Virus record (IMG/VR): IMGVR_UViG_3300033146_002149
Span: 1 to 55,341 of that record
DNA from: a virus
Lineage: Duplodnaviria; Caudoviricetes
Direction: 5' to 3' (one strand)
Length of the DNA: 55,341 nt
Position 1 is the stretch's first letter. Each line of letters begins with the position of its first letter. Shown piece after piece: positions 10,701 to 53,499 of this stretch. Position numbers and translations under genes: made by a program. Below the pieces are notes generated by a model, which did no database searches, had not been told where the DNA came from, and saw only the letters and a list, made by a program, of their open reading frames with translations.

Positions 10701-13700
10701 TTATCAAAAAAAGCTGTTTCTTGCTCAAAGTCGATAATTTTAGTTACTGGAATCTCCAGAGCTTTAATTATTCCTTTAGCTCCAGAATAACTTCTCGCTA
10801 TATTTTTATCTGAACTACCAAAAAGATTATAACCTTCTCTACTTAAGTGTCCAGGTCTATCTTTACCCATACCACGGTAAATTTTTACAGTATCCGTAAA
10901 AACCATATTTTGATAATAGATTTCTTTTAATTTTTTTTCTAATGCTCTCCCTTCTGGGGTTTCCATAACATCTATTTGATCAAAGATATCCATTGCATTA
11001 ATTTTATCATCTAAGGCTTTTTCTTTTGCTGTTAATTTTAAAGTAGTTTTCTGTTTTTTATTCGCAATTTCATGCGGGAGGCTTATTCCTTTTGAATGCG
11101 TTTGATCAGTTCGAATTTCAAAATAAGCTTTAACTGCGTCAGATGTACTATTCTTTTTATTTGGTTTTCCAAAGCGCTCAGTCTTATCTAACGCAGATTG
11201 ATACTTAGGTAATGTCATAGCATCAAACCAATCAGACATAGGTAATGATTTTAATTCATTAAGAAGAAAAAGATCCTCCGCAGTGAAAAAATCTTTTGCT
11301 TCTTTAGGCTTATTTCTTTCTGGTAATAAATTATCATCAAAAACAGCAATTTCATAAGCTCCTGAAGGTAACTTTTCTTTTGCTCCTTTAATCCCATGTT
11401 TAACCAATAGCTTTCTAGCTTTCTCAGCTCCTACAGTATGAACTAAAGCACCAATAACACCTCGACCATGTTTGAAATTTGATTTATGATTCTCAGCTTT
11501 AGTGATTTTTTCTTGTGTATCTAAACCACCTTCAGCAAGAGCTGCTTTAAGTTTTGGAGGTATAGGATCATTTAGGACATCATAAAAATCATCTGTTTCA
11601 ATAGATATTTTAGTCTCATCACCATATTTACTGTAAACATTTTTAGCTAAAGCTAAATCAGTAGAAAAGTATATTCCTGGCCCAAGAATACTACTTCCTT
11701 CACCAGAATGAAGCATGGCAGATAAAATATCGCCACCTCGATAAGAGCCATAATGAATAGCATCAGTTATTTGAAACTGCGGAGTAATTTTAAGCTTCTC
11801 ATTTTGCGCTGACAAATCCTGAGCTTCTTGCAGCAATGCTTTGCGTGTAGCCTTATCTTTTTCAACATCCAGCTCATTCATGATTTCGTCAATTCGAGAT
11901 TCATTCGAAGTTATTTGATCATCAATATTTGGCACAACTTCTTTTTTCATTGCATCTAATTGTTCTAATAAATCACTTTTTTGGCTAAGTAAATCATTTT
12001 CTTGTCCACGTAAAGTTGCTGATTTCTGTCTTAGGCGATCATAATCTTCTCGCTCAATATATTCATTTTCAAGTTCATTAATTGTTTTATTATATTCATT
12101 TTGAAGACTTCCTAATTGATCTTCATTTTCCTGATATTTAGATTTAAGATCAGTACGAATTTGATCTTCTTCCTGCTGTGTTTCAAGATCAAGGGCGGCT
12201 TGTTGATTTGCTTCTATGCCGACTTGTTGTTCATTTTTGAACACACTCGTTTCATCGGTTGGTAAGTTCTGTTTTGTTCTATCAATCAGGCCTGACTCAC
12301 CCATTCCTTGTGCTGAACCAAGTTTAACAGCACCTAATTGATGTTCTCCAGGAATTGTTCGAGCTCTATCTTGGCCAGTTGCCACCCTGTTGGGATCAGT
12401 AACATCCCCGAGGTCTTTCGCAATTTGTTGAAACCACCTTTGGCGTTTATACTGTTCAGCTAAAGGAACTGTACCTTTTAATTTTGTTGCCTCATAAGAT
12501 TCCTTAGCATCAAGATCTTCTTGTATCTTCTTTTCAATCTCTTTTGCATGACGGGCAAGAAATCTTTTCTTCATTGCAGCGCCTTGCTCTTTAAGCATTT
12601 TAATTTGCTGCTGTTTTTCTATTTCTGTTTTAACTTCTTGCCAATAATCATCTTCAATATTAGCACGAACTTCATTAGCTTTTTGTCGGGTAGATGCAAT
12701 AACTTGTTGACTTTTTGTCAAAGCATCTTTTTCTGCATTAATCTTATCAATAGCATTTACAATTGAATCTTGATAAGTAGTTATTTCCTTTAAAAGTTCT
12801 TTTTTCCTAATTTCAGCACGAACTTTTTCTACTTGATTTTTAGTAGTACTGATTACTTCTTCACTATGGGCTAAAGCCTCACGATCTTTTCTAAGTGCGT
12901 CAGTAGTATTAACTAAGTCATTTTGAAAAGCCTCTATTTGTTTAATGGCTTCTTTATTACTGATTTCTTGCCTGACTTGAGCTGCCTTAACTTTAGTAGA
13001 TGCAATAACTTCTTGGCTTCTAATAGAATCTTCTTGATCAGATATTTTATCTACCCGTGATAAAGCTAAATCAACTTGATAATCTTCAATACTTCTTTTA
13101 TTTTCTTGCTGGACATCTCTCTGTTTGATTTCTTGCTTAATCTCAGAGGCAAGTTTTCTTGTTTGCTGAATGTTTTGTTGTCCAGCAATAGTATTTCGTA
13201 TAGATGACTGATAATCACTAATAGAAGTTTGTCGATCTTCCTCTAGAATAGTTGGTTTATTCGCCGTAAGTATATCAGCAGATTCTTCTGCTCCTTTATT
13301 CACAGATAGTCCAATAGATTGCTCAAGGCCAGCTTCACGATTTTGCCGGAGTTCTTCTTCACGTAAGGATTTACCAGGCGGAACAACATTATCTTGGCTT
13401 TGTAACGGAATTGCCTTAGTAATCTGATTAGCAAGATTAACCATATCTATGCGGACTGCTTTCTTAGTATCAGCTAAACTTAAGTTACGTTTAACAGATT
13501 CTTCTTGCAACAGTTCCGGAGTAGATAAAAGCAACTGGAAGTTTCTTACTTGATTTTGCAAGCCTTCAGGAGTTTTATTAAATGCTTCTTGCTGGATGTT
13601 ATCACGCTTTGCTTGAAGCTCATAAAGTCGTGACGTAACCCCAGCTGGAGGATTCTCAACTGCCTCCAAGTTCCCAATTTGTTTATTTATCTCAGTAATA

Positions 13701-15019
13701 TCATCAGGCAGGGCAAAGGCATCTTTATTTATGCGATCGTCAACTGGGGTAGCTCCAGCAATAGGTACTTCTTCTCCAGTTAGTTTCGATACAATCTGGG
13801 AATTAACATCTGTTTCGGCAGTCAATTGAGCTGTAAAATCATCAATAGACATACCTTCAGCCTGGGCAGCTCTTTGCACTCTCAAGGGATTATTCAATAT
13901 CTTTGTATTAGCTGCATTTTGTTCCGTCAAAGATACTACTGCTTGCTGAATATTTGCTTCTCCAGCAGACTTAATATTATCCACACGTTCGTTAATACGT
14001 GCTTCTTGATCTGGTGCTTCCGAAGTTTTGCCCATCATAGTATTAGCTGCACCACCAAAGCCTCCGCCTACAACACCAGCAGCAGCACTTTCCAAGATTT
14101 CCCACTTATTATCATTTGTGAAAAACTTCTCATCAGTATTCAAAACTGTATTGAGTATACCAATCGCGGATTGTCCCGCTTCTTGTAAGCCTTCTTCGCC
14201 CATATTATGAACAATCTCAAGTGCTCCACGTTTAGCTGTTTTTGCACTCCCAGATGCGATACCATTAATCAGAGTTCCGATTAACTTACTATTCCCGCCC
14301 AGCAGTTCAAGTGCTCCAGACAAAGTACCTAAAGCAGCAGACATTGCTGGAGCTTTAACACCATGAGTTTCCAACAGATCTGCATACATTCCACCAGCTT
14401 CTTGTGTTGCTACCGTGGATACCATGCCAGCTTGGGCAGCTCTTGTCAATCCTTTCTTTGTTAAGCCTGTAATAAGTTTTTTAGCTGCAAATCCACCAGC
14501 ACCACCACCAAGTGCGGCAGTAGCCATACTTGGAAGTAACGAACCGATTGTGCCCTGAACAAAGTCTGCTGTTCCACCAAGTCCGGCCTTACCATCCCAT
14601 ACGTCTTTAAAACTATAGCGGGCAGGATTCTCAGCAGCTTCAGCCAAATTTCGGCGATAACCTTCCATACCAAAATCTTGCATCCTTTGACCAACATTAT
14701 CTGCACCCATATTCTCCAAAGCACGACCGGTCAATGCGACTGCTCCGTAACCAGCTCCTTGAGTCTGATCGATATTGCGTTTTATGCCTGTTATAAAATC
14801 ACCTTGAGCTTCAAGGTTCGCCAAGCCTCGTTCTTTACTAGCTTGCTGTTGCTTCACTGCATTTAATGTTTTGGGTGAATATACTTCTTGCTGATCTCCA
14901 AACAACACCTTATATCTTGGCTCATTTTCCCAAAGGTTATTATGCTGTTCTTCACCTATATCATCAATGAATTTATCATATCCATATTCTTTAATTGCTT
15001 CTGGTGTTGCTTTTGCCAT
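4751..15019 (-). CDS. Giant polyvalent internal virion (ejection) protein with ADP-ribosyltransferase-like modules and an HExxH peptidase motif
   Basis: 3422 aa. N-terminal Gly/Ala-rich helical region, coiled-coil repeats, four YHG/YRG...GxY(F/S) ART-like motifs, WHENKH at 8912-8926, and a HAEEVQSDW domain typical of phage polyvalent proteins. Located after the tail genes. Confidence 0.8.
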   Translation of the reverse strand: MAKATPEAIKEYGYDKFIDDIGEEQHNNLWENEPRYKVLFGDQQEVYSPKTLNAVKQQQASKERGLANLEAQGDFITGIKRNIDQTQGAGYGAVALTGRALENMGADNVGQRMQDFGMEGYRRNLAEAAENPARYSFKDVWDGKAGLGGTADFVQGTIGSLLPSMATAALGGGAGGFAAKKLITGLTKKGLTRAAQAGMVSTVATQEAGGMYADLLETHGVKAPAMSAALGTLSGALELLGGNSKLIGTLINGIASGSAKTAKRGALEIVHNMGEEGLQEAGQSAIGILNTVLNTDEKFFTNDNKWEILESAAAGVVGGGFGGAANTMMGKTSEAPDQEARINERVDNIKSAGEANIQQAVVSLTEQNAANTKILNNPLRVQRAAQAEGMSIDDFTAQLTAETDVNSQIVSKLTGEEVPIAGATPVDDRINKDAFALPDDITEINKQIGNLEAVENPPAGVTSRLYELQAKRDNIQQEAFNKTPEGLQNQVRNFQLLLSTPELLQEESVKRNLSLADTKKAVRIDMVNLANQITKAIPLQSQDNVVPPGKSLREEELRQNREAGLEQSIGLSVNKGAEESADILTANKPTILEEDRQTSISDYQSSIRNTIAGQQNIQQTRKLASEIKQEIKQRDVQQENKRSIEDYQVDLALSRVDKISDQEDSIRSQEVIASTKVKAAQVRQEISNKEAIKQIEAFQNDLVNTTDALRKDREALAHSEEVISTTKNQVEKVRAEIRKKELLKEITTYQDSIVNAIDKINAEKDALTKSQQVIASTRQKANEVRANIEDDYWQEVKTEIEKQQQIKMLKEQGAAMKKRFLARHAKEIEKKIQEDLDAKESYEATKLKGTVPLAEQYKRQRWFQQIAKDLGDVTDPNRVATGQDRARTIPGEHQLGAVKLGSAQGMGESGLIDRTKQNLPTDETSVFKNEQQVGIEANQQAALDLETQQEEDQIRTDLKSKYQENEDQLGSLQNEYNKTINELENEYIEREDYDRLRQKSATLRGQENDLLSQKSDLLEQLDAMKKEVVPNIDDQITSNESRIDEIMNELDVEKDKATRKALLQEAQDLSAQNEKLKITPQFQITDAIHYGSYRGGDILSAMLHSGEGSSILGPGIYFSTDLALAKNVYSKYGDETKISIETDDFYDVLNDPIPPKLKAALAEGGLDTQEKITKAENHKSNFKHGRGVIGALVHTVGAEKARKLLVKHGIKGAKEKLPSGAYEIAVFDDNLLPERNKPKEAKDFFTAEDLFLLNELKSLPMSDWFDAMTLPKYQSALDKTERFGKPNKKNSTSDAVKAYFEIRTDQTHSKGISLPHEIANKKQKTTLKLTAKEKALDDKINAMDIFDQIDVMETPEGRALEKKLKEIYYQNMVFTDTVKIYRGMGKDRPGHLSREGYNLFGSSDKNIARSYSGAKGIIKALEIPVTKIIDFEQETAFFDKVKFDKQAKLLAPGSVLLARNVHDVGPEASKKIDPEMRYSYPSDIYAFGQITDRQQQAIKELPNIDPVSFQITEELTSAQKKLQWEIESLEAKEKLPAPQKRLLARLKKQLIDSMQASNLAPTKAIGKLYHGSSREGLTSGKDLPDGHRGYFLTEDPTVASKFGTVHEATLSIPPEKIFDARKPEHAEALDKIAEKTAHINKLNGKDGQVSNAQEGSFNFYEDPQVFWALKDLGFEANWQVEDGANVIRVFNKNAIESFTPQFQIVYHGTPHQWQPEPGFPNGRPRLDMIMNKEVVGEGAWAYGAGWYSADSKEVGASYLDSSFDYLVNQLADISDISGNSLKGKESLHKQLTDKLNKYPSQSGSLYKLDIPDSVIPKLLDWDKSLKQQNSNVKNILKQVTDFLLLHKDKVAPIELKHIKEESITGRALYKELRYVLGSKQAASEYLASLGIPGNKYLDGMSRSEGKGNLNYVLWDQKVLDQVALLERNQEKLHIMQAEIRNDKTPSKGISLLDIKNMYKDQEVFQNEDGLISVKLKNGKGITFQSIQDAGEGFIQYAISTGQMSKNGKILGVTLGSDILLDENFADNRTLWHENKHVLDNLGMITKADNAALNKEFNKLNKAGQLDFALSTHTDPIKAMEENRANMFAQIMVNKDAYAGTTFEKIIQKIMEFFNKMLGLGRQSISGLISEVESGKIYERQVNGKSVQTIKPQTEVTAEKWYSTIAKTIDASNMKSAKAGAWLNNIKKAPGIKKDELDWTGLSAMLLENPQKKLTKDEITTWFNEHQVKLEEVVLDDFSYIEQELEALYSEQAYLDQEENLSPLMQQRQLEVEDEIDALTIRSDFFSEETGTKFYAYKEAGGQDYKELIITLPGKTKYTSNAHWGDTSNPVVHFRILTRFAENGSKILHAEEVQSDWDQELRKKGESKDLYSFYNIPVKRNPNGMPTVRSDMMLKNKINQLLTLGEITQEQARNDLSLISDGDQGIERNPFSENAVMLGMKRMVRYAAENGFNKIAWSGADIQVKRWGSEAFNWKTNLDGDLELSGFAQVAGDAFMGMAAQLEGKTFDLVDFISSRDDVYDHIKDVLKHKEGEYSKKTWEEYLDKTADKLWQRMQENPTGEYLPRKEGMVEFYNKMLPRMLQKEFGKGQWGSAKLDFIQVDGMKLPSMEITDRMRSKAMREGMPMFETREQIVPQETYDKVFTQKNNLLKDIQQIFRMKATDIKLLGDKLLGSTHTRLQNISPKLAAEYRNLDFRTGQSVASVLEAAHPLMLKAKKQMSAKDKVEWDWARKQSDPGKIDQLTQKYGLTEDYNNVRTQLNKLRQDAEDVGYNVGYIDEYWPRVIKDMEGFLQETQEISQQPIYSNAIKAEAAKLDISVQEFNRTYPEVRADIISNIILGHPTGISGPGNIQGRVFKEIESKYAKFYEDSDAALMTYIYSMTKKIEARRFFGKVPAAISKAKSAVKRDQTNLIKYEQLKALDTAEADTTNKDAYSKKIKSLQDNIKLNSVKIEEYKNKRDYTDNIGTYISDLMISGELGKKDEKLVNDILDARFHEHGTTGITNTIKNASYIDTMGSFTSAATQIGDLAWAMYVGKVWTPRGFSNTLKNFNAAVLKRSNITKENLGLDRIAQEFAGNDSLSKAVSKVFWAVGLEKMDSIGKEVLINNSLDNYKNRASTEAGRQQLLKDIRPIFGKESNQVIQDLLGNPITDNVKLLVYHRLLDFQPVALSEMPEKYLNAGNGRIFYMLKTYTIKQLDVFRREVFNNIKSGEQDKIITGISNMVAITTLLTLANAGADEIKDLMLGKEMRFEDHVIENLLTLGGASRYMKAEINQEGLGSAIIGQILPPTKFVDALSKDVTGDVSKGIRSVDSIPGIGKLYYWHMGKGVEFKKSIPEQDFNKAGKEVKKFKKSFEEATNKRLFLNMNKEAFKGMKTYEAYQSALRKNKSKENKLKELPQQSTAVLTELGKLNAQREDLYKQFNVIK

Positions 15020-30441: not shown

Positions 30442-32496
30442 TTAATAACCTGTAATTAAATTAGCTTCAACTTCATTAAAAATATCTGATTCCTCATAAG
30501 CTTCGAGTTCCCAATATGGCCTTGCTACCGCTCGATCCAGGCCAGACATGACTAAGTAGCGAACACAATCCATTAAATGATCATTTGATTTTACAATCTT
30601 CCCGTTTTCGTCCCGTCTGTAGATGCGAAATTCTGAAAACCAATTGACCAACGATGAGAATACTTTTAACCGGTTTGTGGATAGCATTTGCCATACTTTG
30701 TACAGGCCAGCTTCTACGGATTTATTAGCGTTAGATATATCAAGACCGTGATCTAAATAGATTTGAAACATTTGCTTACCATCTTCTTGTGACCTGCCGT
30801 GAGCAGCAGAATCAATTACGCCTGGAATCCATAACCCGCGAGCTTTAATGCCTTCAGCGTGAATAACAGGCTCTGCTTGACCTTGATAGTACTCAGAGTA
30901 TAAGTAAGTTATCTTTGCTGTAGGATCAGTAGCCGCCCATAAACATGCAGTTTTCTTCCATCCGATATCTAAGGCATAACAGCGGTGCCAATGTTCGGGG
31001 ATTTGAAAATCTGCCACAGTAATGTTAGATTCTTGGATTGGGAATATTGCCCCAGAACCAAGTTGAGGAATACCTTTTGACCTGGCTTCTCGTTGGTGGG
31101 GAGGTAATGCGGCAAACAGCTTGTCTTTCTGCTCTTTAGTAAGATGTGGAGCATCATCCCAGGTTGCCATTACCAAGCATTTGCTACCATCTTGACGTTC
31201 CTTCACCTCTCCGTCAGGCATAAACTGCATAACGGTGTCCGTGAGGCCTTCCAACGGGGTGAATGTAAGCATGATCAGGCCGTTTGTAGTCATGGTTCGA
31301 GTTACGCACTCAACGTATATGGACATCGGGCATTCTTCATCCAACCAAATTAAGTCTTGCTCTGTACCTTCGAATGATTTTCTGCCTTCAGCATATGACT
31401 TGATCTTACAGCGTGAAATTCCACCAGATATATGCTTCACGAGGATGGTATCTACTGCATTTGGAACGCCACCGGCCTTGGGAGTAGTCTTAATGATGTG
31501 TTTTTTCGGAATTAGTCCGGTACCAAATTCTTCTGGATTCCCAATGAGCTTGAGTTGTACGATATCTCTAGCGGTAGTGGATGTTGTTCCTGCTGCCCAG
31601 CATGTTATAGGGCGAGTGAATCGATGACCTTCCCACCAATCTGGATACCTACCGGTTAGATGCAACGTAGTTTCATATGCACCGATGCCTTCAGAGTTAT
31701 GGGTAACAATTCCACCAGTAAGAATAAAAGTATGTTCTGAATGAGATACTTCAATACAAGTACACGGAGCTGTTTCACCTAAATTAATTTGTGTTATTTG
31801 ACAATCAATAAGGTGACTATCTAATTGTTGTGTGTTTTTGAGATAATTTTCACTTTGAGTAAAATAGTCTTCAGTGATCGGGAGGCAGTTGCCGCTGCTA
31901 TTAAGATGAACAACTCTTGGAACAAAAATAACTTTCCCAGCAACAATAAATTTAATAAGTTGTTCCGTATTTGTGACTTCCGGAAAGTTGTTTGTTAATA
32001 ACTCTTTGGCAGTGATGTCTTGTGACTGGCTGTCTTGTGACTGGCTGGACAATTGTCGTTGCCGTAGGCCGGAGGAATATTTCCAAAGATGTTCACCACA
32101 ACAAGTTACCTCTTCATCGGAATCAAAGAGTATTTTATAAAGTTGTTTTTCTCCTTGAGGATAAATACCAATAACATCGGTCAATGAACCATCAGCTGCA
32201 ATAACAACCTCACCTAAAATAAGCTCCTCAATAGCTTTCCATCCATATGGAGTAGCTACTTGAGTTCCATGCTTAAGAGCTTTGCCTATCCTATTTGCAG
32301 CCATAATACATCGTTCAGAGTATTCTGTGCCGAGTTGAAAGAACTTCATGTGCTTGGGATAATTGAATCTTGATAGCAGGCCAGTTTTAGGATAATATTG
32401 ATCTAGCTTGGCTTGTTTTAAGCGGAGGTTTTTTGCTCGCAGAAGTTTTAAATACTCTTCTTTGGAATCCCTATCCATTGTGGAAATATCAACCAT
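30442..32496 (-). CDS. terL: Terminase large subunit containing an intein
   Basis: Walker A MAANRIGK|S is split by an insertion; Walker B LIWLDEE; LTFTP; nuclease ALDIG and NDHLMDCVRY. Confidence 0.93.
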   Translation of the reverse strand: MVDISTMDRDSKEEYLKLLRAKNLRLKQAKLDQYYPKTGLLSRFNYPKHMKFFQLGTEYSERCIMAANRIGKALKHGTQVATPYGWKAIEELILGEVVIAADGSLTDVIGIYPQGEKQLYKILFDSDEEVTCCGEHLWKYSSGLRQRQLSSQSQDSQSQDITAKELLTNNFPEVTNTEQLIKFIVAGKVIFVPRVVHLNSSGNCLPITEDYFTQSENYLKNTQQLDSHLIDCQITQINLGETAPCTCIEVSHSEHTFILTGGIVTHNSEGIGAYETTLHLTGRYPDWWEGHRFTRPITCWAAGTTSTTARDIVQLKLIGNPEEFGTGLIPKKHIIKTTPKAGGVPNAVDTILVKHISGGISRCKIKSYAEGRKSFEGTEQDLIWLDEECPMSIYVECVTRTMTTNGLIMLTFTPLEGLTDTVMQFMPDGEVKERQDGSKCLVMATWDDAPHLTKEQKDKLFAALPPHQREARSKGIPQLGSGAIFPIQESNITVADFQIPEHWHRCYALDIGWKKTACLWAATDPTAKITYLYSEYYQGQAEPVIHAEGIKARGLWIPGVIDSAAHGRSQEDGKQMFQIYLDHGLDISNANKSVEAGLYKVWQMLSTNRLKVFSSLVNWFSEFRIYRRDENGKIVKSNDHLMDCVRYLVMSGLDRAVARPYWELEAYEESDIFNEVEANLITGY
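31696..32280 (-). mobile_element. 195-aa mini-intein (class 3 signature) in the TerL P-loop
   Basis: Starts ALKHGTQVATPYGWKAIEEL, block B VTCCGEHLW, block F PCTCIEV, ends IVTHN followed by Ser+1. No homing endonuclease motif visible. Confidence 0.88.
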
Positions 32497-32498
32497 TG

Positions 32499-33056
32499 TT
32501 AATCAGCCATATTGCGAAAAGGATCAAAAAGAACGTTTTCTAAAATAGTTTCATCATCTAGCGAAGTGGAAGCTTCAATAGGTGGAAAATCACCAGGAGT
32601 ATCTGGAGTATCTGGAGCAGATTCTTCTTTTGGTTTATTGGTGTTGATTGAATTTTCCATGGCTGCGATTTCTGCGTCGATTTCCTCATCCGTCTTGGTT
32701 TGTAAAGTCATGTCGATGGTAAGTTTATCGGGGGCTTTATAGCCATTGCGGTCGAGTATGTCTTTAGCGGCTGATAGTTGGACATTAAAAGGTGCTTTCT
32801 GCTTAACATCTAAAATTCTACTAAATGCGGAAAGAGCATCTTCGTTTAGGGCAATCAATTTTTTACGTACATCGATTGTGGATTCTTTCATTTTGTCATG
32901 TAGGCCGTTCATGTAAGCTTTGCCTAAAGGTGAATGAAGAATAATTGATACGGTGCTTGGGGTTATTTCCAGTTTTTCAGATATCTCGTTATTAGTGAAT
33001 CCATTGAAGGACATTTGGATTATGTTGCGATGGCGAGCTTTGAGTTCTTTTAGCAT
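32499..33056 (-). CDS. terS: Terminase small subunit (N-terminal HTH)
   Basis: GFTNNEISEKLEITPSTVSIIL HTH and AAKDILDRNG motif, directly upstream of terL. Start placed at MLKELK (33056, GAAGGTG upstream) rather than at 33164. Confidence 0.75.
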   Translation of the reverse strand: MLKELKARHRNIIQMSFNGFTNNEISEKLEITPSTVSIILHSPLGKAYMNGLHDKMKESTIDVRKKLIALNEDALSAFSRILDVKQKAPFNVQLSAAKDILDRNGYKAPDKLTIDMTLQTKTDEEIDAEIAAMENSINTNKPKEESAPDTPDTPGDFPPIEASTSLDDETILENVLFDPFRNMAD

Positions 33057-33296
33057 AAGGGCACCTTCAATTGGGATGATAGTTAAAAATGGTGGAACTG
33101 CTTTAATAGATAGAGCTTTCTGTGAGGGTAGTTTAACTGTACCACGTAATGGGTTTGGTGTCAAGGGAAATTAACAGGTTTTTGAAAATAGTTGATAGGT
33201 GTGTTTTGTGCCGGAAAGCCTCCCTTATAAATATGCGACTCTAATATATAATAGGCAAGTTGAAAGAAATACTCAGTTGTTTTTTGAAAACTGGCC

Positions 33297-33310
33297 GTTC
33301 ACAAGTGAAC
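33297..33310. promoter_or_regulatory. Palindromic operator-like box, copy 2
   Basis: actggccGTTCACAAGTGAAC upstream of terS. Confidence 0.6.
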
Positions 33311-33487
33311 CGACTTTTTAAAAGGAGTCATTGTGAAAAACTGTTTGCTCCATTCTTGTATATAGACAAGTAAAAGCACTATCAGAAAACCGAGGCATCC
33401 TTATATAGAGATTGTGCGTACCTTAATTGAAAGCAGCAGCCAACAGGTAACAGCAGCCAATTGGTTAAGGATACCTGATGGTAGGTA

Positions 33488-33560
33488 GCTAAAAATAATA
33501 AATAGCTAAAAATAATAAATATCTAAAAATGGGTAAGGATATAAAAATAGGTAAGGATAT
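33488..33560 (+). repeat. Short tandem repeats
   Basis: GCTAAAAATAATAAATA x~2.5 (17-bp unit), then GGTAAGGATAT x2. Confidence 0.7.
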
Positions 33561-33620
33561 GTTATAATAGTGACAAGTTCAGAATAATAAACCCTGGCAA
33601 ACAGCATGATTATGTAATGA

Positions 33621-33842
33621 TATCAACTAGTTACAGCATACTCACCACATGTTTACCTTATAACGGTTTACAATTTTAAACTTCAGCAAACTGACTAAAC
33701 ATCCAATGATTTCAGGTAGTTATGGTTATTTTGGAGTAATAATCATGATAGTTGGTTCATTATCCTAAACTTTTAACCCCACCATGGGGGTAAGGAGGCT
33801 AAACAGGGGTATAGCATAATGAGTAATGATATCAGTGGGTTG
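33621..33842 (+). promoter_or_regulatory. Three IHF-like binding sites
   Basis: TATCAACTAGTTA (33621-33633), TTTCAGGTAGTTA (33710-33722) and TATCAGTGGGTTG (33830-33842) versus the consensus WATCARNNNNTTR; all are preceded by AATGA. Confidence 0.65.
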
Positions 33843-33870
33843 TGAGATAAATCGGGCTTTGTCGGGTACT

Positions 33871-33886
33871 TGGCACAGGGTTTGCA
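33871..33886 (+). promoter_or_regulatory. sigma54 (RpoN) -24/-12 promoter
   Basis: TGGCAC-AGGGT-TTGCA is an exact match to TGGCAC-N5-TTGCW, 75 bp upstream of the first plus-strand ORF. Confidence 0.75.
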
Positions 33887-33960
33887 ATGATAACCAAACA
33901 AGTAGAAAAAAGTTTTTCTGCTAAAACATTTTAACCTTTATCTAGTAGGGAGAAACAAAC

Positions 33961-34161
33961 ATGAATAACATACAAAAGATGATAGCAACCTTACGTTGTG
34001 CAAAACAAGAAGTTAGACAGATTGAATATGAGTTAAACCAAGAACTTATGACTCTTGACAGCGGGATAAAACAGGCATACTTGCAAGGGATTATTAAGTT
34101 TAATTTTACCGTGATGCCATACACCATTGAAAAGATGCAAAAAGAGCTGGGGGAAAGATAA
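33961..34161 (+). CDS. Hypothetical protein
   Basis: 66 aa, RBS AGGGAGA; first gene after the sigma54 motif. Confidence 0.6.
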   Translation: MNNIQKMIATLRCAKQEVRQIEYELNQELMTLDSGIKQAYLQGIIKFNFTVMPYTIEKMQKELGER

Positions 34162-34163
34162 AA

Positions 34164-34415
34164 ATGAGTAAAAAATTCATTATTGGATTAGATAGTAAAA
34201 ATGAAGCGCTAACAAAGTGGCTGGTTAAAGAGTTGACTGATTATTTCCATGAGTTAGGGATAACCATAATAAGGACAACTCAAGAAAAAAATGTTTCTCG
34301 AGCAAGATTGCTATGCTCCAAAGATATGGAGCAACAAAGTTATGAAGCAACAATTGATTTGTTACAAAAACATTTAGGCGGTCTGAACCTTGTTTTTAGT
34401 CCAGTTAATTCGTAA
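34164..34415 (+). CDS. Hypothetical protein
   Basis: 83 aa, starts 2 nt after the previous stop. Confidence 0.55.
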   Translation: MSKKFIIGLDSKNEALTKWLVKELTDYFHELGITIIRTTQEKNVSRARLLCSKDMEQQSYEATIDLLQKHLGGLNLVFSPVNS

Positions 34416-34425
34416 TATACTAAAT

Positions 34426-34454
34426 AATGTACTGGTCATAAGATCGGTACATTT
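34426..34454 (+). terminator. Intergenic hairpin
   Basis: AATGTACTGGTC-ATAA-GATCGGTACATT stem (with G-U pairs). Confidence 0.45.
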
Positions 34455-34495
34455 AAAACATTTAATAAAAAGCATTTAATAAAAAGGAAATTATC

Positions 34496-34987
34496 ATGAC
34501 AACAGAAGTGAAAACATCACAGAGTATTTATATTACATTGGATACATTGACAACTGAAACATCTGTACCTGGACAAAGCCCAAAAATGCAAAAACATACA
34601 TTACCACGTAAGGCATTCCCTACCAGTGAAGAGTTTGAAAATGAAGAGTTGTTGCTAGCATGGACGGAAAAGAATAAGGTAACTCACGCCTGCTTGCAAA
34701 AAGGTATCAAAGCGCATTTAATTGACATTCGAGCAAAGTTTAAATCATGCAAAAAAGATGATACATGGTCGAATGAATATGGGCAAAAAAATGTAAATGC
34801 TTATCCATGGGAGGTGCAAACCCGTCCGAATAGCAAACAAAATGAGGCAAAAGCAGCAGTTTTGACCGCTGGAATGGATATGGGAACCGCAATGAAAGCT
34901 GCTGGCCTAACAGATGAGTTAATCAGAATAAGCTTGCTTCCAGTATATGGTAAAAATGACACTGAAATGATCCTAGCTAAGTTGTAA
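34496..34987 (+). CDS. Hypothetical protein
   Basis: 163 aa, RBS AAGGA. Confidence 0.65.
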   Translation: MTTEVKTSQSIYITLDTLTTETSVPGQSPKMQKHTLPRKAFPTSEEFENEELLLAWTEKNKVTHACLQKGIKAHLIDIRAKFKSCKKDDTWSNEYGQKNVNAYPWEVQTRPNSKQNEAKAAVLTAGMDMGTAMKAAGLTDELIRISLLPVYGKNDTEMILAKL

Positions 34988-35008
34988 ATGTAACAGTAGT
35001 TAAAGCCC

Positions 35009-35044
35009 ATAAGGTTAGTAAGTGTAACAACTTGCTGGCCTTAT
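35009..35044 (+). terminator. Hairpin after the three-gene operon
   Basis: ATAAGGTTAGTAAGT / ACTTGCTGGCCTTAT stem; no strong U-tract. Confidence 0.45.
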
Positions 35045-35398
35045 CCGTGTTTGAATCATGATACTTGTTAAGACAACCCTTTTAGGGGATGATGACCTTG
35101 TAGGGTAGGGCATATTTGGATTGGAAGGTCAGGAGATGGGTTGTCAAGTGAAAGGGTTGTTACAAGTATGCGTGGTCTGGCGTCCGTGGGATATTATGAC
35201 CCGGAGAACCGCTTAAAAATGCCTATCCTGCACGTTTTTAGCATCATAAGACCGTGGTTAGAGGGTAAACACGTCTAACCATACCAATAATTAGCCTACC
35301 GCACTAAAAACCACCATGCTCGTCCCCGCCTGTACCAATAGTGACAAGCATACTTCCAGCCATTCTAGCCTGTTCCCCAGTAGAATGGTTCCTGAGTT

Positions 35399-35622
35399 GG
35401 GTGTGGTAATGTTTACGAAAACATTGACCTCCCCCCCCCTGCGTAAAATAGGAGTAGATAGGAGTAAATAGGAGGCATTAGATGTTACGTATGATACGTA
35501 ACAATTAGTTCTTCATTTTTTTTTTGTAACTTTAAAAAGGAGGTATAGCTCTATATGTAACCCTATATATCATATTCTCGTACAGGGGGGGAGGTGAATG
35601 TTTACGTAAAACTTCACCCACC
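35399..35622. repeat. Large imperfect inverted repeat (~50-bp arms) with an internal perfect palindrome
   Basis: 35399-35450 (...AATGTTTACGAAAACATTGACCTCCCCCCCCCTG...) pairs with 35573-35622 (...CAGGGGGGGAGGTGAATGTTTACGTAAAAC...). TGTTACGTAT-G-ATACGTAACA lies at 35483-35503. Confidence 0.8.
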
Positions 35623-35690
35623 ATCAAGTTATGCCCACCATCAAGTTATAACCAAGCATAAGTTATAACCAAGCATAAGTTAGCCAGCAT
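35617..35690 (+). repeat. Iteron-like 17-bp tandem repeats
   Basis: CCCACCATCAAGTTAT(G/A) x2, then ACCAAGCATAAGTTA(TA/G) x2. Confidence 0.75.
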
Positions 35691-35873
35691 TTTTTTGGGT
35701 TCAGGCGGTTATTTAGGGTCGTCGGCACCACGGTTGCTACGCACGGCGCGTTTCACGCCATGTTTCACGGGCTTTAAACATTTTTACCTAGAATCATACC
35801 GGGCATACCCGGGCATACCCAATCAACCATTTTGACCACGTTTTTGTTAGGCAAATTATTTTTCACTTTTTTG

Positions 35874-35903
35874 TTGACAGGCGCACCGGAGCCGTGATAT
35901 AGG
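35874..35903 (+). promoter_or_regulatory. Putative sigma70 early promoter
   Basis: TTGACA-18-TATAGG with TG extension and a T-tract UP-like element. Confidence 0.5.
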
Positions 35904-35976
35904 TATAACCGTATCAAGTAAACATCACAACAGGCCACAGAATATACTTTCCACTTTTTTACCCAAAGGAGCTTTT

Positions 35977-36882: not shown

Positions 36883-37179
36883 ATGTCAACTTTGACGCAC
36901 TTACTAGATAAAAAACATGAGCTTTTGATAATCCTATATAGTGATAAGCAAGCAGACTTGGAACCATACACACAATATTACACAACCGACCAGGCCTTAC
37001 AATCAGGGAATGTAATCAGCACGACTAAATCAACGATCCTTCCCGTGATTAAGGCTATCATCTTAGATGGAAGTATCAGTCATTTTGAGGTCATCTATAT
37101 TGATCTTTCACCAAAAATTCCAGTAGCATCTTTATTTGATGCCAACGGACAGGTTAAGTCTTTCTTTATTATGTACTAA
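36883..37179 (+). CDS. Hypothetical early protein
   Basis: RBS GGAGA precedes the ATG at 36883 (the track starts at TTG 36871). Confidence 0.55.
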   Translation: MSTLTHLLDKKHELLIILYSDKQADLEPYTQYYTTDQALQSGNVISTTKSTILPVIKAIILDGSISHFEVIYIDLSPKIPVASLFDANGQVKSFFIMY

Positions 37180-38522: not shown

Positions 38523-38855
38523 ATGACAACAGAAAAGATTGTAGCATTACAAAGTAAAAAGGCCGCCTTAATTAAAACTTTCTCAAAACTAAAAGCAGAC
38601 AAGGAAACTGCCTACAATATTTTTGTCAGTGCTCAGATAGCATATATAAAAGCGAAAGATGAAGAACTACAAGCCAAATATCTTTGGGAAAAAACAGACC
38701 GAGAAGAGAAAATCATGATTCATGAAACAAAAAAACTTCTGCCACCAAAGATTAAGGGTAAAAAACCAGCTGTAAGTGCCGAAGCTGTAGCACTCAAAGC
38801 CTTGAAAAACCTTACCCCTGAGCAACGAGAAGCAATTTTGAATGCCTTAAAATAA
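38523..38855 (+). CDS. Hypothetical basic coiled-coil protein
   Basis: 110 aa; leader TTAAAAAGGAACTAATATTATG is nearly identical to that of the previous gene. Confidence 0.6.
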   Translation: MTTEKIVALQSKKAALIKTFSKLKADKETAYNIFVSAQIAYIKAKDEELQAKYLWEKTDREEKIMIHETKKLLPPKIKGKKPAVSAEAVALKALKNLTPEQREAILNALK

Positions 38856-48599: not shown

Positions 48600-50015
48600 A
48601 TGCAACTTTTCCAAATAGAGCAACGTCAAATAGCAGACATACTTATAATTGACCGTGCCAGGACAGATGTAGGCGATATCACCGGTTTGGCAAAATCAAT
48701 TGAAATGGTAGGCCAGCTTAATCCAATCTTAATCGATTCAAACAACAAATTAATTGATGGTCTTAATAGATTAAAAGCAATAGAATCTTTAGACCGTACA
48801 ACTATTGAAGTCCGCATAGTAGATGGGATTACAAACGCAGACCATACTCTCATTGAATTGTTAGCTAACATGGATAGGAAGGAATTTCTATGGCATGAAG
48901 AAATTGAACTCAAGCATAAGATTCATAACTTTTGGGTAGCCGCAGCATCTGAAGCAGGTAATAATTGGGGCTACCGTGAGACTTCTAAAAGGCTAAATTG
49001 CAGCCTCGGTGGTCTTTCAACTGACTTGGCTTTTTGTGAAGCATTGAAAATCTTTCCTATGTTGAAAGAGCAAACTACCAAAGGCCGTGCAAAGGAAGCA
49101 TATAAAGCATTAGGTGAGCAGGCCAAAGCTTTACAGAGGATGGATAATTTTAGCCCAGAAGAAAAAGAAAGACTGACTAACCTTCAAACTGGCAACATAA
49201 AGATTCCTGCAAAAAACACAGCTCCCAACACAGCCATTGAGAAAACCAAACAATTAGGTAAAGAACTATCTTTAGATGCACAAAATAAAGCTGATGCTGA
49301 CCAAACTAAAGTACCAGAAGCAGTTTATGTGGCTGAAAACTATAAAACCTTTATAAATAAGATTCCAGACAATTCTGTAGGCATGGTAGAGTTAGATCCT
49401 CCTTATGCAATTGATTTCAATACTAATTATGGAAAGACATCAAAAATTGAAAGCAAAGCTACAGATTGGACTGAGAAAGAATTATTTGAATTTTATTTTC
49501 ATTACCTACCTGTAATTTATACTAAGATGCTTGATTCCAGTTGGGTGTTATGCTGGACAGGCAAGGAACATGTAGTAGAAATCCAGAAGATTGCTACAGA
49601 AATAGGATTTTCAATACAGCAGCCTGGAGTCTGGGTTAAGCCTGGAGGCAGCACCAACCAGCCTAAACGCAACCTAATTAGTAACTGGGAAATGTATATG
49701 CTGTTCCGAAAAGGTGATGCCACATTCAATACCCCATCATTACCTTCTGCAATTCAAATGAATACAGTAAACAATGCAAAGCGGATTCATCAGTGGGAAA
49801 AGCCCATCGAGCTTTATGATCATTTTATCAAAGCAATGGGTAAACCAGGCACGATCTTTTTATCTCCTTTTGCAGGATCTGGTAATTGTTTGATTGCTGC
49901 GGCTAAGGCAAAAATGATGCCAGTTGGCTGTGATAAAAGTCAAAAATACATCCCGCAGTTTTATAGTAATTTGAGTAATTACCTTGGCTTGGATGTAAAA
50001 ATTTCTGGGAGATAA
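48600..50015 (+). CDS. ParB/Srx-domain plus N6/N4 DNA methyltransferase fusion
   Basis: N-terminal LAKSIEMVGQLNPILI...LIDGLNRL...ELLANMDRKE plus HTH; C-terminal LDPPY, HQWEKPIEL, SPFAGSG (beta-class order). Confidence 0.85.
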   Translation: MQLFQIEQRQIADILIIDRARTDVGDITGLAKSIEMVGQLNPILIDSNNKLIDGLNRLKAIESLDRTTIEVRIVDGITNADHTLIELLANMDRKEFLWHEEIELKHKIHNFWVAAASEAGNNWGYRETSKRLNCSLGGLSTDLAFCEALKIFPMLKEQTTKGRAKEAYKALGEQAKALQRMDNFSPEEKERLTNLQTGNIKIPAKNTAPNTAIEKTKQLGKELSLDAQNKADADQTKVPEAVYVAENYKTFINKIPDNSVGMVELDPPYAIDFNTNYGKTSKIESKATDWTEKELFEFYFHYLPVIYTKMLDSSWVLCWTGKEHVVEIQKIATEIGFSIQQPGVWVKPGGSTNQPKRNLISNWEMYMLFRKGDATFNTPSLPSAIQMNTVNNAKRIHQWEKPIELYDHFIKAMGKPGTIFLSPFAGSGNCLIAAAKAKMMPVGCDKSQKYIPQFYSNLSNYLGLDVKISGR

Positions 50016-50973: not shown

Positions 50974-53499
50974 ATGATCATTCCAAAGATTTCTGTAGCA
51001 CCAAAAAAGTCTAAAGAAGTTTCTTTTGACGTGTTAGCTATAGATTGCCCGCCAACAGATAATATCAATTCCGCAGTTATTGCCATGGTCGGGGAGATTC
51101 CAACCGATTTAGAGCTCTTGAAGGAAGAACCTTTTGTCGGCCCCGTGGGTAGTCAGCTTAATCGTATATGTGCAGCGGTTCGGCTTGCTAGGTATCAAAT
51201 TTATTTGACACATGCTTGTAAGGCTAAAATCCCATCAAATAATTACAACAAACTATGGACAGCTAAAGGTTTCAGGCATTCTCAATGGGGAGAGCTACAA
51301 AGAAACTTGATTGATGAACTTGCAGCATTTCCAGGCAAAGTAATAATGTTACTCGGCTCTACTCCAATGAAACTCTTAATCGATGAGCCAAGGTTTGATT
51401 CAATCAGTAAATATCGAGGATCATTCTATCCAGCTGAAAAATTCCCGCATCTTAAAGATAAGCTAGCGGGCAAAATCATCGGATTCTCATACCATCCATC
51501 ATTTACTATGGTTTATGGTAAACCAATTCATTTCTATACAATTATAGCTGATTTCCTTAAAGCATTAAAAATCATCGATGAGCCAGAACTTCTTAAAGAT
51601 AATACGAAGATAATAATCCAGCCTACCTTGACTGAAATAACAAACTTTTATTCATTAATCAGTACGAAAGATTTTGTCGCCTTTGATATTGAAGCCACAC
51701 CGGAATTTATAACCTGCTTTTCATTGGCAATTTACGATGACGGTTTGATTAAATCTATGTCAATACCAATAATGGATAATCAAGGAGCGTATTGGGGTGT
51801 TGACGAAGAGACTAGAATTTGGATAGGTTTGGCTGAAATTCTGGGCAACCCTTCCATAGGCAAGATATGCCAAAATGGAATGTTTGACCTAATGTTTATC
51901 TTGCGCACGATGAATATAAAAACAGATAATTTTTATTTTGACACTATGTTGGCTCAGCATATTTGTTATACTGAACTGCCGAAAGGTTTGGATTATTTAA
52001 CTTCCGCCTATACTTATTATCCCTACTATAAAGACGAAGGTAAGCAATCACATCTTAAGGTAATTAAAGACTGGAAACAATACTGGCAATATAATGCGAA
52101 AGATTCAGCTTATTTGCTCCCGATATCTGAAGCCCTCATAAAAGAACTGGAAGAATTTGAATCCACTGATGCAATGGAATATACGATGGCTCTGCATAAG
52201 CCTTTAATGGAAATGGAGTTCAACGGTTTTTTGACAGATGTTCGGGGAATTAAAAAGACTAAAAAAGAGTATGAATTAAAAATCATTACGCTGCAAAAAG
52301 AACTTGACGATATCGCCGGGAAGGAAATCAACGTATCATCAGCGAAGCAAATGATTGCTTATTTCTACGGGATATGTATGATCAAACCGTATATTAATCC
52401 CAAAACGAAAAATGCAACTTGCAATACAGTAGCGTTGCATAGGATTGCTAAAAAAGGTGCTAAGGGAGCTGAAGAAGCGAAGTTGATAATCAAAATCAGG
52501 AAGTATAAGAAGTTAGTTTCAACTTATTTTAACATTGCCGTAGATGATGATAATAAACTTCGATGTAGTCATAAGATTTCTGGGACAGTATCAGGTAGAA
52601 TTGCAACGGAAAAGACTTTTTTCGGAACTGGATCAAACCTTCAGAATCAACCTTACATCTTTAAATATTTTCTCATAGCCGAGCCGGATTGGATTCTATG
52701 TGAATGTGATCTTGCTAAAGCTGAAGCCCATGTAGTTGCTTATCTAACCCAAGATGCTAACATGATTCAGTCGTTTGAATCAGGGATTGATGTACATAGT
52801 TTTAATGCCAGCAAAATATTTGATGTTCCAATAGAAGATGTTATCCATGAGGCTAAGACTAAAAAGGTAGATCAAAAAAGCACAATGAGGTACATGGGAA
52901 AGAAGGTTGTGCACGCCAGTAATTATAGCATGGGTGCGCAAACATTCTCCGATCAATTGGCAACTGAAGAAATTTTTAAAGGCATGGCTGATTGTAAGAA
53001 ACTCCTAATTAATTACACAGATCGATTTCCTGGTCTGAAAAGATGGCATCAATCCATTGAAGAAGAGGTCACAAATAGCAGGGTACTGTTTAATTTATTT
53101 GGCCGGCCTAGGAGATTCTTGGGTGATATGAATGCAGCTTTGTTTAGAAATGCTTATAGCTACAAACCTCAATCTACTGTAGCGGAGTTGTTAAATAAAG
53201 GAATGATTAAATGCTCCAATGATAAGCGGCTTATGAAAGATGGATTTGACATAAGATTTAATACTACTGTCCATGATTCAATGGTCTTTAGTTTTCATAA
53301 AAGCCAGATTGATAACTTACTCCAAATTTTACTTATTATTAAAGATCACATGACACACACTTTTACATATAAAGGAAAGAGTTTTACCATTGGCTTGGAT
53401 GCTAAGATTGGTCGGCAGTGGGCTGGCAAGACAGCTGAAATAGCAAGTTTTACTCAAAAAGAGATAGACGCTGCAATGGATAAGATAAACATTAAGTAA
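50974..53499 (+). CDS. polA: Family A DNA polymerase with N-terminal uracil-DNA-glycosylase-like domain and 3'-5' exonuclease
   Basis: UDG-like VGEIP...EPFVGPVG...SYHPS; exonuclease FDIE, QNGMFD, YNAKD; polymerase TVSGRI, NLQN, CDLAKAE, RYMGKKVVHASNY, TVHDS. Confidence 0.92.
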   Translation: MIIPKISVAPKKSKEVSFDVLAIDCPPTDNINSAVIAMVGEIPTDLELLKEEPFVGPVGSQLNRICAAVRLARYQIYLTHACKAKIPSNNYNKLWTAKGFRHSQWGELQRNLIDELAAFPGKVIMLLGSTPMKLLIDEPRFDSISKYRGSFYPAEKFPHLKDKLAGKIIGFSYHPSFTMVYGKPIHFYTIIADFLKALKIIDEPELLKDNTKIIIQPTLTEITNFYSLISTKDFVAFDIEATPEFITCFSLAIYDDGLIKSMSIPIMDNQGAYWGVDEETRIWIGLAEILGNPSIGKICQNGMFDLMFILRTMNIKTDNFYFDTMLAQHICYTELPKGLDYLTSAYTYYPYYKDEGKQSHLKVIKDWKQYWQYNAKDSAYLLPISEALIKELEEFESTDAMEYTMALHKPLMEMEFNGFLTDVRGIKKTKKEYELKIITLQKELDDIAGKEINVSSAKQMIAYFYGICMIKPYINPKTKNATCNTVALHRIAKKGAKGAEEAKLIIKIRKYKKLVSTYFNIAVDDDNKLRCSHKISGTVSGRIATEKTFFGTGSNLQNQPYIFKYFLIAEPDWILCECDLAKAEAHVVAYLTQDANMIQSFESGIDVHSFNASKIFDVPIEDVIHEAKTKKVDQKSTMRYMGKKVVHASNYSMGAQTFSDQLATEEIFKGMADCKKLLINYTDRFPGLKRWHQSIEEEVTNSRVLFNLFGRPRRFLGDMNAALFRNAYSYKPQSTVAELLNKGMIKCSNDKRLMKDGFDIRFNTTVHDSMVFSFHKSQIDNLLQILLIIKDHMTHTFTYKGKSFTIGLDAKIGRQWAGKTAEIASFTQKEIDAAMDKINIK

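Follow-up and report, generated by a model that had tools for sequence, protein, structure and literature searches.

Between its leftward terminase genes and its rightward early genes, the 55,341-bp virus record IMGVR_UViG_3300033146_002149 from IMG/VR (linear, completeness estimate 83%; analysed at its full length and called the window below) carries an element with the -24/-12 consensus of sigma-54 promoters. We suggest that this element, at 33871-33886 on the plus strand, is a genuine site for the sigma-54 holoenzyme of the host, that it belongs to a class of such sites in the early control region of the family, and that it acts as an early promoter. From the sequence comparisons presented here, we estimate the probability of this reading to be roughly 0.58. 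Early transcription of phages is normally thought to start at strong sigma-70 promoters or via phage polymerases, and sigma-54 promoters need an ATP-driven activator to fire. Sigma-54 sites at the head of an early region would imply that infection is gated by the signalling state of the host, that the promoters fire by an unknown route, or that the inactive closed complex itself is put to use. The motif might also serve to flag, by computation, phages whose hosts carry rpoN.

A sigma-54-type element in the divergent intergenic region

Structural and packaging genes occupy the minus strand from 1 to 33056. The plus strand from 33961 encodes small genes without known function, followed by a replication module with a helicase, a PD-(D/E)XK nuclease, a Sak4-like ATPase, an NAD-ligase, a ParB-methylase, a uracil-DNA-glycosylase-PolA protein and a primase. 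An alignment with 11 relatives places the true start of the small terminase, terS, at 33056 (MLKELK) and not at 33164, and the divergent non-coding region thus covers 33057-33960, i.e., 904 bp. The features discussed below are collected in Table 1.

An earlier note on this DNA had proposed that a complete sigma-54 promoter, with integration host factor (IHF) sites and enhancer repeats, drives an operon of three genes from this region. The match on which the proposal was built, TGGCAC-N5-TTGCA at 33871-33886, is present as described. It is the single exact match to TGGCAC-N5-TTGCW in the 55-kb record, where 0.12 matches are expected. The GG and GC doublets are exactly one helical turn apart, as sigma-54 sites demand, and the element is located 74 nt 5' of the ATG of gene 1, on the same strand. 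The flanking bases, a T before TGG, an A after TGGCAC and AA after TTGC, also follow the preferences of sigma-54.

A matrix trained on 31 copies from relatives only, i.e., with the copy of the window excluded, scores the site at 23.4 bits, compared with a median of 23.8 in the training set, 15.6 for the next-best site of the window and a maximum of 18.6 in 20 shuffles. By this sigma-54-type matrix of relatives' copies the site stands well above the rest of the window, in line with the earlier note. Over 33871-33888, it is identical at 15 of 18 positions to the glnK site of Salmonella, one of the sites bound in the chromatin immunoprecipitation (ChIP) data given in PMC3844500. The start of transcription that had been predicted near 33897 agrees with the published rule, as stated in PMC4591121, of a start 19 bp downstream of the centre of the sigma-54 motif. 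A sigma-70 -35/-10 reading of 33871-33910 finds no such site, neither in a scan nor by eye; TTGGCA is followed by ACCAAA at 17 nt.

It could be argued that the site is a chance match in A+T-rich non-coding DNA, and that the real early promoter is the extended -10 element at 33560-33568 or some other sigma-70 site. At least one exact match to TGGCAC-N5-TTGCW occurs in 11 of 100 shuffles of the window, and looser versions with up to two mismatches show no enrichment, with 31 sites where 29.1 are expected. The second -24/-12-like site of the window, at 35723, is weak. It has an exact core, GGCAC-N5-TTGC at 35724, yet it scores below 6 bits with the matrix of the relatives and is probably not functional. 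In addition, the extended -10 element TGTTATAAT, 300 bp upstream, is common to one relative. However, the site at 33871 shares position class, strand and score with the 31 copies of the relatives, and five shuffled sets of early regions (290 kb) contain 0, 0, 0, 1 and 0 hits at the threshold used below. A chance origin, disfavoured already, is in our view very improbable.

Conservation of the element in relatives

Relatives were retrieved from IMG/VR with the terS, terL and gene-3 proteins, giving 155 loci. The intergenic regions of the family have a common layout, in which CGAGGCA and a ATTGTTCC-like element are followed by a promoter slot 100-300 bp beyond. In 7 of 15 regions this slot contains the strict motif, directed toward gene 3. 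There is a single copy in each of the window, L006, L008 and L019, four copies are found in both L015 and L017, and eight in L007; L010 has a one-base variant. Consensus sigma-70 promoters (TTGACA-N17-TAnnnT) fill the slot in L002, L020 and L022 and, judged by eye, in L001, L097 and L100. Since the slot holds sigma-70 promoters in relatives without the motif, it can be identified as a place for promoters. Some relatives carry both sigma-54-type and sigma-70 promoters.

To count the motif more widely, 60 early-region loci were grouped into 26 clusters at 85% identity, and a hit was defined as at least 17 bits. At least one sense hit is found in 12 of the 26 clusters, with 33 sense versus 5 antisense copies overall; as the matrix was partly trained on copies from the same family, these cluster counts are not independent of it. 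The motif conservation that the earlier note had proposed to look for is therefore seen in part: the motif recurs as a class, but not in every cluster. In the whole records of ten relatives, 23 of the 28 matches to the strict pattern fall in the early control region, and the reversed pattern, used as a control, has no match in any of the ten.

The search pattern fixed 11 positions, and the remaining positions were examined separately. Among 32 unique copies from the family, a purine follows TGGCA(C/T) in 31, and the lone exception is inside a coding open reading frame (ORF). G never stands directly before TGG, and the second base after TTGC is A or T in all copies. In the ChIP-bound intergenic sites of Salmonella listed in PMC3844500, a purine is found at the same position in 29 of 29, with TGGCAC and TGGCAT mixed, and the phage copies mix the two forms likewise. 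The motif and these unselected preferences recur across unrelated phages of differing G+C, as described below, and the simplest common reader is thus the host sigma-54 holoenzyme.

Several copies are found 25-75 nt before small ORFs. A copy in G004 is 52 nt before an ORF start, and the sense elements of L100/G008 are 25 and 58 nt before the ATGs of small ORFs as read from the sequence (31 nt in the first case by the ORF caller). In L100 these two sense elements and one antisense element are located 0.6-0.8 kb downstream of gene 3. At 3089-3330 of L100, one element faces back into a 33-codon hydrophobic ORF, which is itself preceded by a forward element. The arrangement recalls that of a small membrane peptide accompanied by an antisense promoter.

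Among the records G000-G011, the motif-bearing genomes have a G+C content of 33-37% (one 40%), and the three motif-free genomes have 40-41%. This may reflect a difference in hosts that goes along with the promoter type.

Tandem rows in relatives and in unrelated phages

Several relatives do not have a single element but a row of them. In L007, eight copies follow each other at 25-34 bp, with a last gap of 57 bp, and L015, L017 and L128 have four to five copies, including one inverted copy each in L017 and L128. Within the rows, TGGCAT prevails in the distal copies and TGGCACG in the gene-proximal copy. In seven relatives, the gene-proximal copy is followed by a conserved ATCCTTATTATATAG. The rows could be extra promoters, a parking place for the holoenzyme or a sink for sigma-54.

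Rows are also found far outside this family. Searching IMG/VR for pairs of strict copies separated by 7-13 nt gives at least 120 stretches, mostly from unrelated phages, while a reversed control that is twice as permissive gives 7. Among the matches listed, 80 tandem loci range from 31 to 62% G+C, three of the 80 have terL similarity and none has terS or gene-3 similarity. The start-to-start spacings in these listed loci are 25 bp (11 cases), 26 (38), 27 (30), 28 (30) and 29 (15). In the 77 unrelated phage loci among the matches listed, the locus-weighted frequency of a purine after TGGCA(C/T) is 0.97 and that of a T before TGG is 0.66, and G at -28 as well as A at -31 and -29 reach about 0.5 each.

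Neighbouring copies are not close duplicates. At 13 unconstrained positions the mean identity is 48% over 126 pairs among the matches listed, with 80 pairs at or below 0.5 and only 6 at or above 0.9. It follows that the copies are individually maintained by selection and have not been recently duplicated. Together with the reversed control (7 versus at least 120), this identity also rules out that the rows are random tandem repeats, even if L196 and L243 are exceptions resembling plain tandem repeats. Repeats within coding proteins can be ruled out as well, as the spacings 25, 26, 28 and 29 outnumber 27; the ORF caller spans the arrays.

Two arrangements in unrelated contigs deserve a description. 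In L230 (2055-4550), a unit of two tandem elements and a conserved leader hairpin, GCCTGCCATTTTGGCAG, is repeated at least four times and looks like a promoter-leader cassette. In L208 (8236-8447), and also in L214, L232, L209 and L227, forward and reverse elements alternate back to back with a 47-bp period. For three array-bearing loci, a search for cultured relatives found none.

Activator, host and alternative readings

A number of observations weigh against a host-read sigma-54 promoter. The earlier note had seen no enhancer-binding protein in the window, and a profile search confirms this: PF00158 is absent from the window, from five relatives (94-100% complete) and from five unrelated array-bearing records. 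No common upstream enhancer motif is visible among 14 promoter-proximal regions. The motif is absent from 14 of the 26 clusters, the largest one, with 28 loci, among them. In L100, the nearest relative by gene 3 (68% identity), a sigma-70 promoter is found upstream of gene 3, and the sigma-54-type elements are downstream instead. In the seven relatives with a conserved sequence after the proximal copy, this copy has a second possible reading as a sigma-70 promoter, TTGGCA-N16/17-TATTAT; the copy of the window, the distal copies and those of L100 do not allow such a reading. The genes directly 3' of the element in the window are orphans. In the unrelated loci, 140 of 391 copies are intergenic by a crude ORF caller; the following ORF has the same orientation as the copy in 78 cases and the opposite one in 44, which is a modest bias. 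Finally, rows at 25-29 bp with some inverted copies look as much like protein-binding arrays as like promoters.

Several searches bear on the host. The DNA of the window has no match among 50,697 cultured phage records, and gene 3 has none in cultured phages. The cultured relatives of terL are at most 54% identical and come from many Gram-negative hosts (among the matches listed, 25 of 561). When genome contigs were scanned with the terS alignment, one 3.5-kb contig from a metagenome-assembled genome was found. This genome encodes sigma-54; the contig is without the motif, and its binning is uncertain. A search of a protein atlas gives viral clusters only, and the window contains no tRNAs and no Rfam families. 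The earlier suggestion of a host in Desulfobacterota finds no support. The G+C content of the phage is 37%, Shine-Dalgarno sites are in use, and promoters of the TTGACA type are found in its relatives.

A phage-encoded reader was also sought. The DNA-binding domain of sigma-54, PF04552, is absent from the window and from five relatives. T7-type polymerase, PF00940, was not found in five relatives, a weak result since the control matched nowhere. The small early ORFs match no known family. As a further candidate, the 3422-residue ORF of the virion module (4751-15019, minus strand) was considered as an N4-like virion polymerase, a reading that finds no support; the ORF has no sequence match in Pfam, PHROG or PDB. 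Its middle part resembles internal virion proteins of podoviruses with a transglycosylase, and a protein of a Methanosarcina virus.

One alternative is that the sites bind sigma-54 or its holoenzyme mainly to park or titrate inactive closed complexes, and not for productive transcription. This could blunt sigma-54 responses of the host, insulate the divergent early and late units from each other, or hold the polymerase on the entering DNA end. According to PMC4591121, the sigma-54 holoenzyme binds promoters in a transcriptionally inactive form, and most sites in E. coli are not ordinary promoters. The rows of four to eight copies at 25-27 bp in L007, L015, L017 and L128 would suit such a role, as would the selection that keeps each of the dissimilar adjacent copies (48% alike at unconstrained positions) and the lack of an activator gene in any record searched. 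However, the window has one copy, so that there is no sink here, single copies stand at promoter-like distances before ORFs, and in L230 a conserved leader hairpin follows each of the recurring tandem pairs, an arrangement expected of promoters. We consider parking or titration to be fairly unlikely as the main role.

Alternatively, the motif could be the operator of a phage DNA-binding protein, or of an unrecognised polymerase factor, that mimics the sigma-54 consensus. The proximal copy in the relatives would then overlap a sigma-70 promoter regulated by the phage protein, as the seven copies readable in both ways allow. Rows of direct repeats in which a copy is now and then inverted are a typical feature of operators, iterons and centromere-like sites. 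Furthermore, two families of small ORFs, 36883-37179 and 38523-38855 in the window, are present in five of eight motif-bearing and in none of three motif-free genomes, but with only three negative genomes from two clades this association is a weak lead only. On the other hand, the motif and its flanks recur in phages of 31-62% G+C without a terS or gene-3 homologue, which points to one conserved host factor, and the likeness to real sigma-54 sites extends beyond the 11 positions. Typical iterons are spaced by whole helical turns, to which 25-29 bp does not correspond. Among the proteins of the phage, terS can be discounted as the binder, since an almost identical helix-turn-helix (HTH) is found in the terS of motif-free relatives. 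An operator of this kind seems quite unlikely to us.

We suggest instead that the host sigma-54 holoenzyme would bind the single site 33871-33886, between terS and the first rightward genes. A transcript would begin near 33897 with a 64-nt leader, followed by the orphan genes at 33961-34415. It may read on through the hairpin at 34426-34453 into gene 3, or the hairpin may end or stabilise the transcript before gene 3. We infer that firing would need an enhancer-binding protein of the host or a phage factor that has escaped recognition.

It can be speculated that the stacked sigma-54 sites of the unrelated phages, at about 26-28 bp, heading the early regions and without an AAA+ activator encoded by the phage, form a distinct viral device, although we find this doubtful at present. 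As the spacing is about 2.5 helical turns, stacked sites would be on alternating faces of the DNA. The device could be a battery of promoters fired by an as yet unrecognised phage factor or by a host activator of the Psp or Rtc type that is triggered by infection. It could also be a sink that captures the small sigma-54 pool and thereby disables sigma-54-dependent stress or defence programmes. If such a device exists, the single site of the window would be its minimal form.

The rest of the intergenic region

The additional parts of the promoter architecture proposed earlier fare less well than the -24/-12 element. The IHF-like pattern WATCARNNNNTTR does occur as reported, exactly at 33621 and 33830 and with one mismatch at 33710, but not above chance: window-wide, there are 8 matches versus 11.6 expected, with 2 of them in the 904-bp region. 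Both exact intergenic matches fall inside one exact direct repeat of 12 nt, GTAATGATATCA.

The direct repeats GGT(T)AAGGATA (three times) and CAGCAGCCAA (twice) are also present as claimed, together with a further 17-bp repeat, TAGCTAAAAATAATAAA (2.6 times), that the earlier note did not mention. As an enhancer, these repeats are not convincing. They are 310-440 bp from the -24 box, where about 80-200 bp would be usual for activator-binding repeats, they directly adjoin the extended -10 sigma-70-like element, and they are not common to the relatives, each of which has different repeats there. With IHF matches at chance level and repeats that are not conserved, the claim of a complete sigma-54 architecture is not supported. 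The only enhancer-like candidate at a typical distance is, speculatively, the palindrome at 33776-33791, and ACCCCACCATGGGGGT has no counterpart upstream of the elements in the relatives. Around the extended -10 element, a 16-nt block, TGTTATAATRGTGACA, is common to one relative only (L015 and L155 being the same contig).

Another element of the region is conserved in the family. CGAGGCA is found in 12 of 15 intergenic regions, and a ATTGTTCC-like partner about 31 nt downstream in 14 of 15; this partner is absent from the window. The pair is located between terS and the promoter slot in L007, L015, L017, L019, L100 and others, and a GTATATAGA block is often found about 30 nt upstream of it. 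The strict motif itself was considered as pac or cos repeats and rejected, as the HTH of terS is nearly invariant in 12 sequences and no more than 7 of 15 intergenic regions have the motif. The CGAGGCA/ATTGTTCC pair would better suit the role of a site recognised in packaging or by terS.

Genes downstream of the element

Genes 1 and 2 have no family match in Pfam, PHROG or PADLOC, and no homologue apart from themselves among 5.8 billion proteins. Neither the relatives' loci, searched with tblastn, nor viral contigs contain a homologue. Gene 3 is matched by tblastn in 20 of 24 loci with terS and/or gene-3 similarity, and in several relatives it is preceded by sigma-70 promoters. Its AlphaFold model, from an alignment of 16 sequences, has a predicted local distance difference test score (pLDDT) of 90.8 and a mostly helical fold, without a significant fold match in PDB or BFVD.

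The three genes had been described as one operon. Genes 1 and 2 are indeed contiguous, but the hairpin at 34426-34453 parts them from gene 3, and because such a strong hairpin precedes gene 3 a single three-gene operon is not supported. None of 200 shuffles folds equally well, and no clean U-tract follows the hairpin, which is possibly a terminator or a protector of the RNA end.

Table 1. Features of the intergenic region and its surroundings in the window
Feature	Position	Strand	Remarks
terL	30442-32496	-	
Small terminase terS, N-terminal HTH	32499-33056	-	Matches to PHROG 2538 and to GerE/Sigma70_r4 HTH
CGAGGCA, window copy of the conserved intergenic element	33391-33397	+	
Direct-repeat run, 17-18 bp period	33434-33560	.	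CAGCAGCCAA x2, TAGCTAAAAATAATAAA x2.6, GGTAAGGATA x3
Extended -10 sigma-70-like element TGTTATAAT	33560-33568	+	Second candidate rightward promoter
G+C-rich imperfect palindrome ACCCCACCATGGGGGT	33776-33791	.	Centre about 113 bp 5' of the predicted start
IHF-consensus-like match TATCAGTGGGTTG	33830-33842	+	Within the 12-nt repeat GTAATGATATCA, also at 33614-33625
Sigma-54-type -24/-12 element TGGCACAGGGTTTGCA	33871-33886	+	GG at 33872-33873, GC at 33884-33885
Predicted transcription start	33897-33898	+	19 bp 3' of the motif centre (PMC4591121)
Gene 1, 66 residues, orphan	33961-34161	+	ORF with GGGAG ribosome-binding site
Gene 2, 83 residues, orphan	34164-34415	+	Begins 3 nt after gene 1
Hairpin, 12-bp stem, between genes 2 and 3	34426-34453	+	dG -14.5 kcal/mol, z -4.54
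Gene 3, 163 residues, conserved first early gene of the family	34496-34987	+	Function unassigned
Weak second -24/-12-like site CGGCACCACGGTTGCT	35723-35738	+	238 nt before an ORF of 108 residues

Other features of the genome

Gene 3 is followed by a 1-kb ORF-poor stretch (34988-35976) with an elevated G+C content of 43%. A run of nine C (35431-35439) and one of seven G (35585-35591) stand in inverted context, and there are direct repeats of 17 bp at 35617-35682 as well as 2.7 repeats of CATACCCGGG at 35795-35820. In the relative L097, a similar pair of C and G runs with dense short repeats follows gene 3. The stretch has no Rfam match and may be an origin or a non-coding RNA.

Two proteins of the replication module have fused domains. 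At 50974-53499 (+), uracil-DNA-glycosylase is joined to a 3'-5' exonuclease and a family A polymerase, and at 48600-50015 (+) a ParB-like nuclease domain is joined to an N6/N4 DNA methylase. On the other strand, terL seems to contain an insert at about residues 60-270, which is possibly an intein. The part from 60 to 148 matches PHROGs named DnaC-like loader and primase, with a weak match to Hint_2 at 74-110, and most relatives and cultured phages align to terL only from residue 272 onward.

Comparison with known systems

The closest counterparts of the element are the RpoN sites of enterobacteria, such as those of glnK, glnA, pspA, rsr/rtcBA and hypA, as given in PMC3844500 and PMC4591121. 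They have the same TGGCA(C/T)-R-N4-TTGC(A/T) at fixed spacing, and the element of the window resembles them also in being non-coding, on the right strand and a short distance before a gene. Unlike them, it is viral and has neither a nearby gene for an enhancer-binding protein nor a recognisable enhancer, and the relatives stack such elements in tandem rows at 25-29 bp. In the literature, we found no description of tandem stacking of cellular sigma-54 promoters. At the level of listings and abstracts, we also found no paper on sigma-54-type elements that head the early region of a phage or form tandem rows.

The rows of four to eight direct repeats, with a unit of 16-18 bp in non-coding DNA, are similar to iterons, operator arrays and centromere-like repeats. 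They differ in that the unit is the sigma-54 consensus, is common to unrelated phages and occurs in single copies before genes, and in that the copies are about 2.5 helical turns apart, compared with 2 in those repeats.

At the entering genome end of the podovirus T7, three strong early promoters, A1, A2 and A3, are arranged in tandem. As with the candidate promoters of the present family, several co-oriented promoters for the host polymerase are placed one after another where the early region begins, in a phage with large internal virion proteins. The T7 promoters are, however, of the sigma-70 type, free of activators and spaced much further apart.

A use of host sigma-54 has been reported for the Pseudomonas phage YuA, which depends on sigma-70 and sigma-54 (PMC10914365, citing Ceyssens et al. 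2008), and for which ONT-cappable-seq shows one sigma-54-like promoter and transcription start in the data described in PMC10914365. Among the structural genes, its GenBank entry, NC_010116, marks three regions as 'high activity (2000 MU), -24/-12 consensus sequence', and according to this annotation the promoters showed activity in a promoter trap. Within the first 50 kb of YuA we find 15 sites with at most two mismatches, none of them on the plus strand inside the three annotated regions. YuA has no DNA match to the window and is absent among the matches listed for terL (25 of 561). The sites of YuA are late or structural and single, unlike the near-perfect elements, sometimes in rows, at the early head of the present family. 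Like the present family, however, YuA is a tailed phage with neither a sigma-54 nor an activator of its own, and it is reported to use the sigma-54 of its host.

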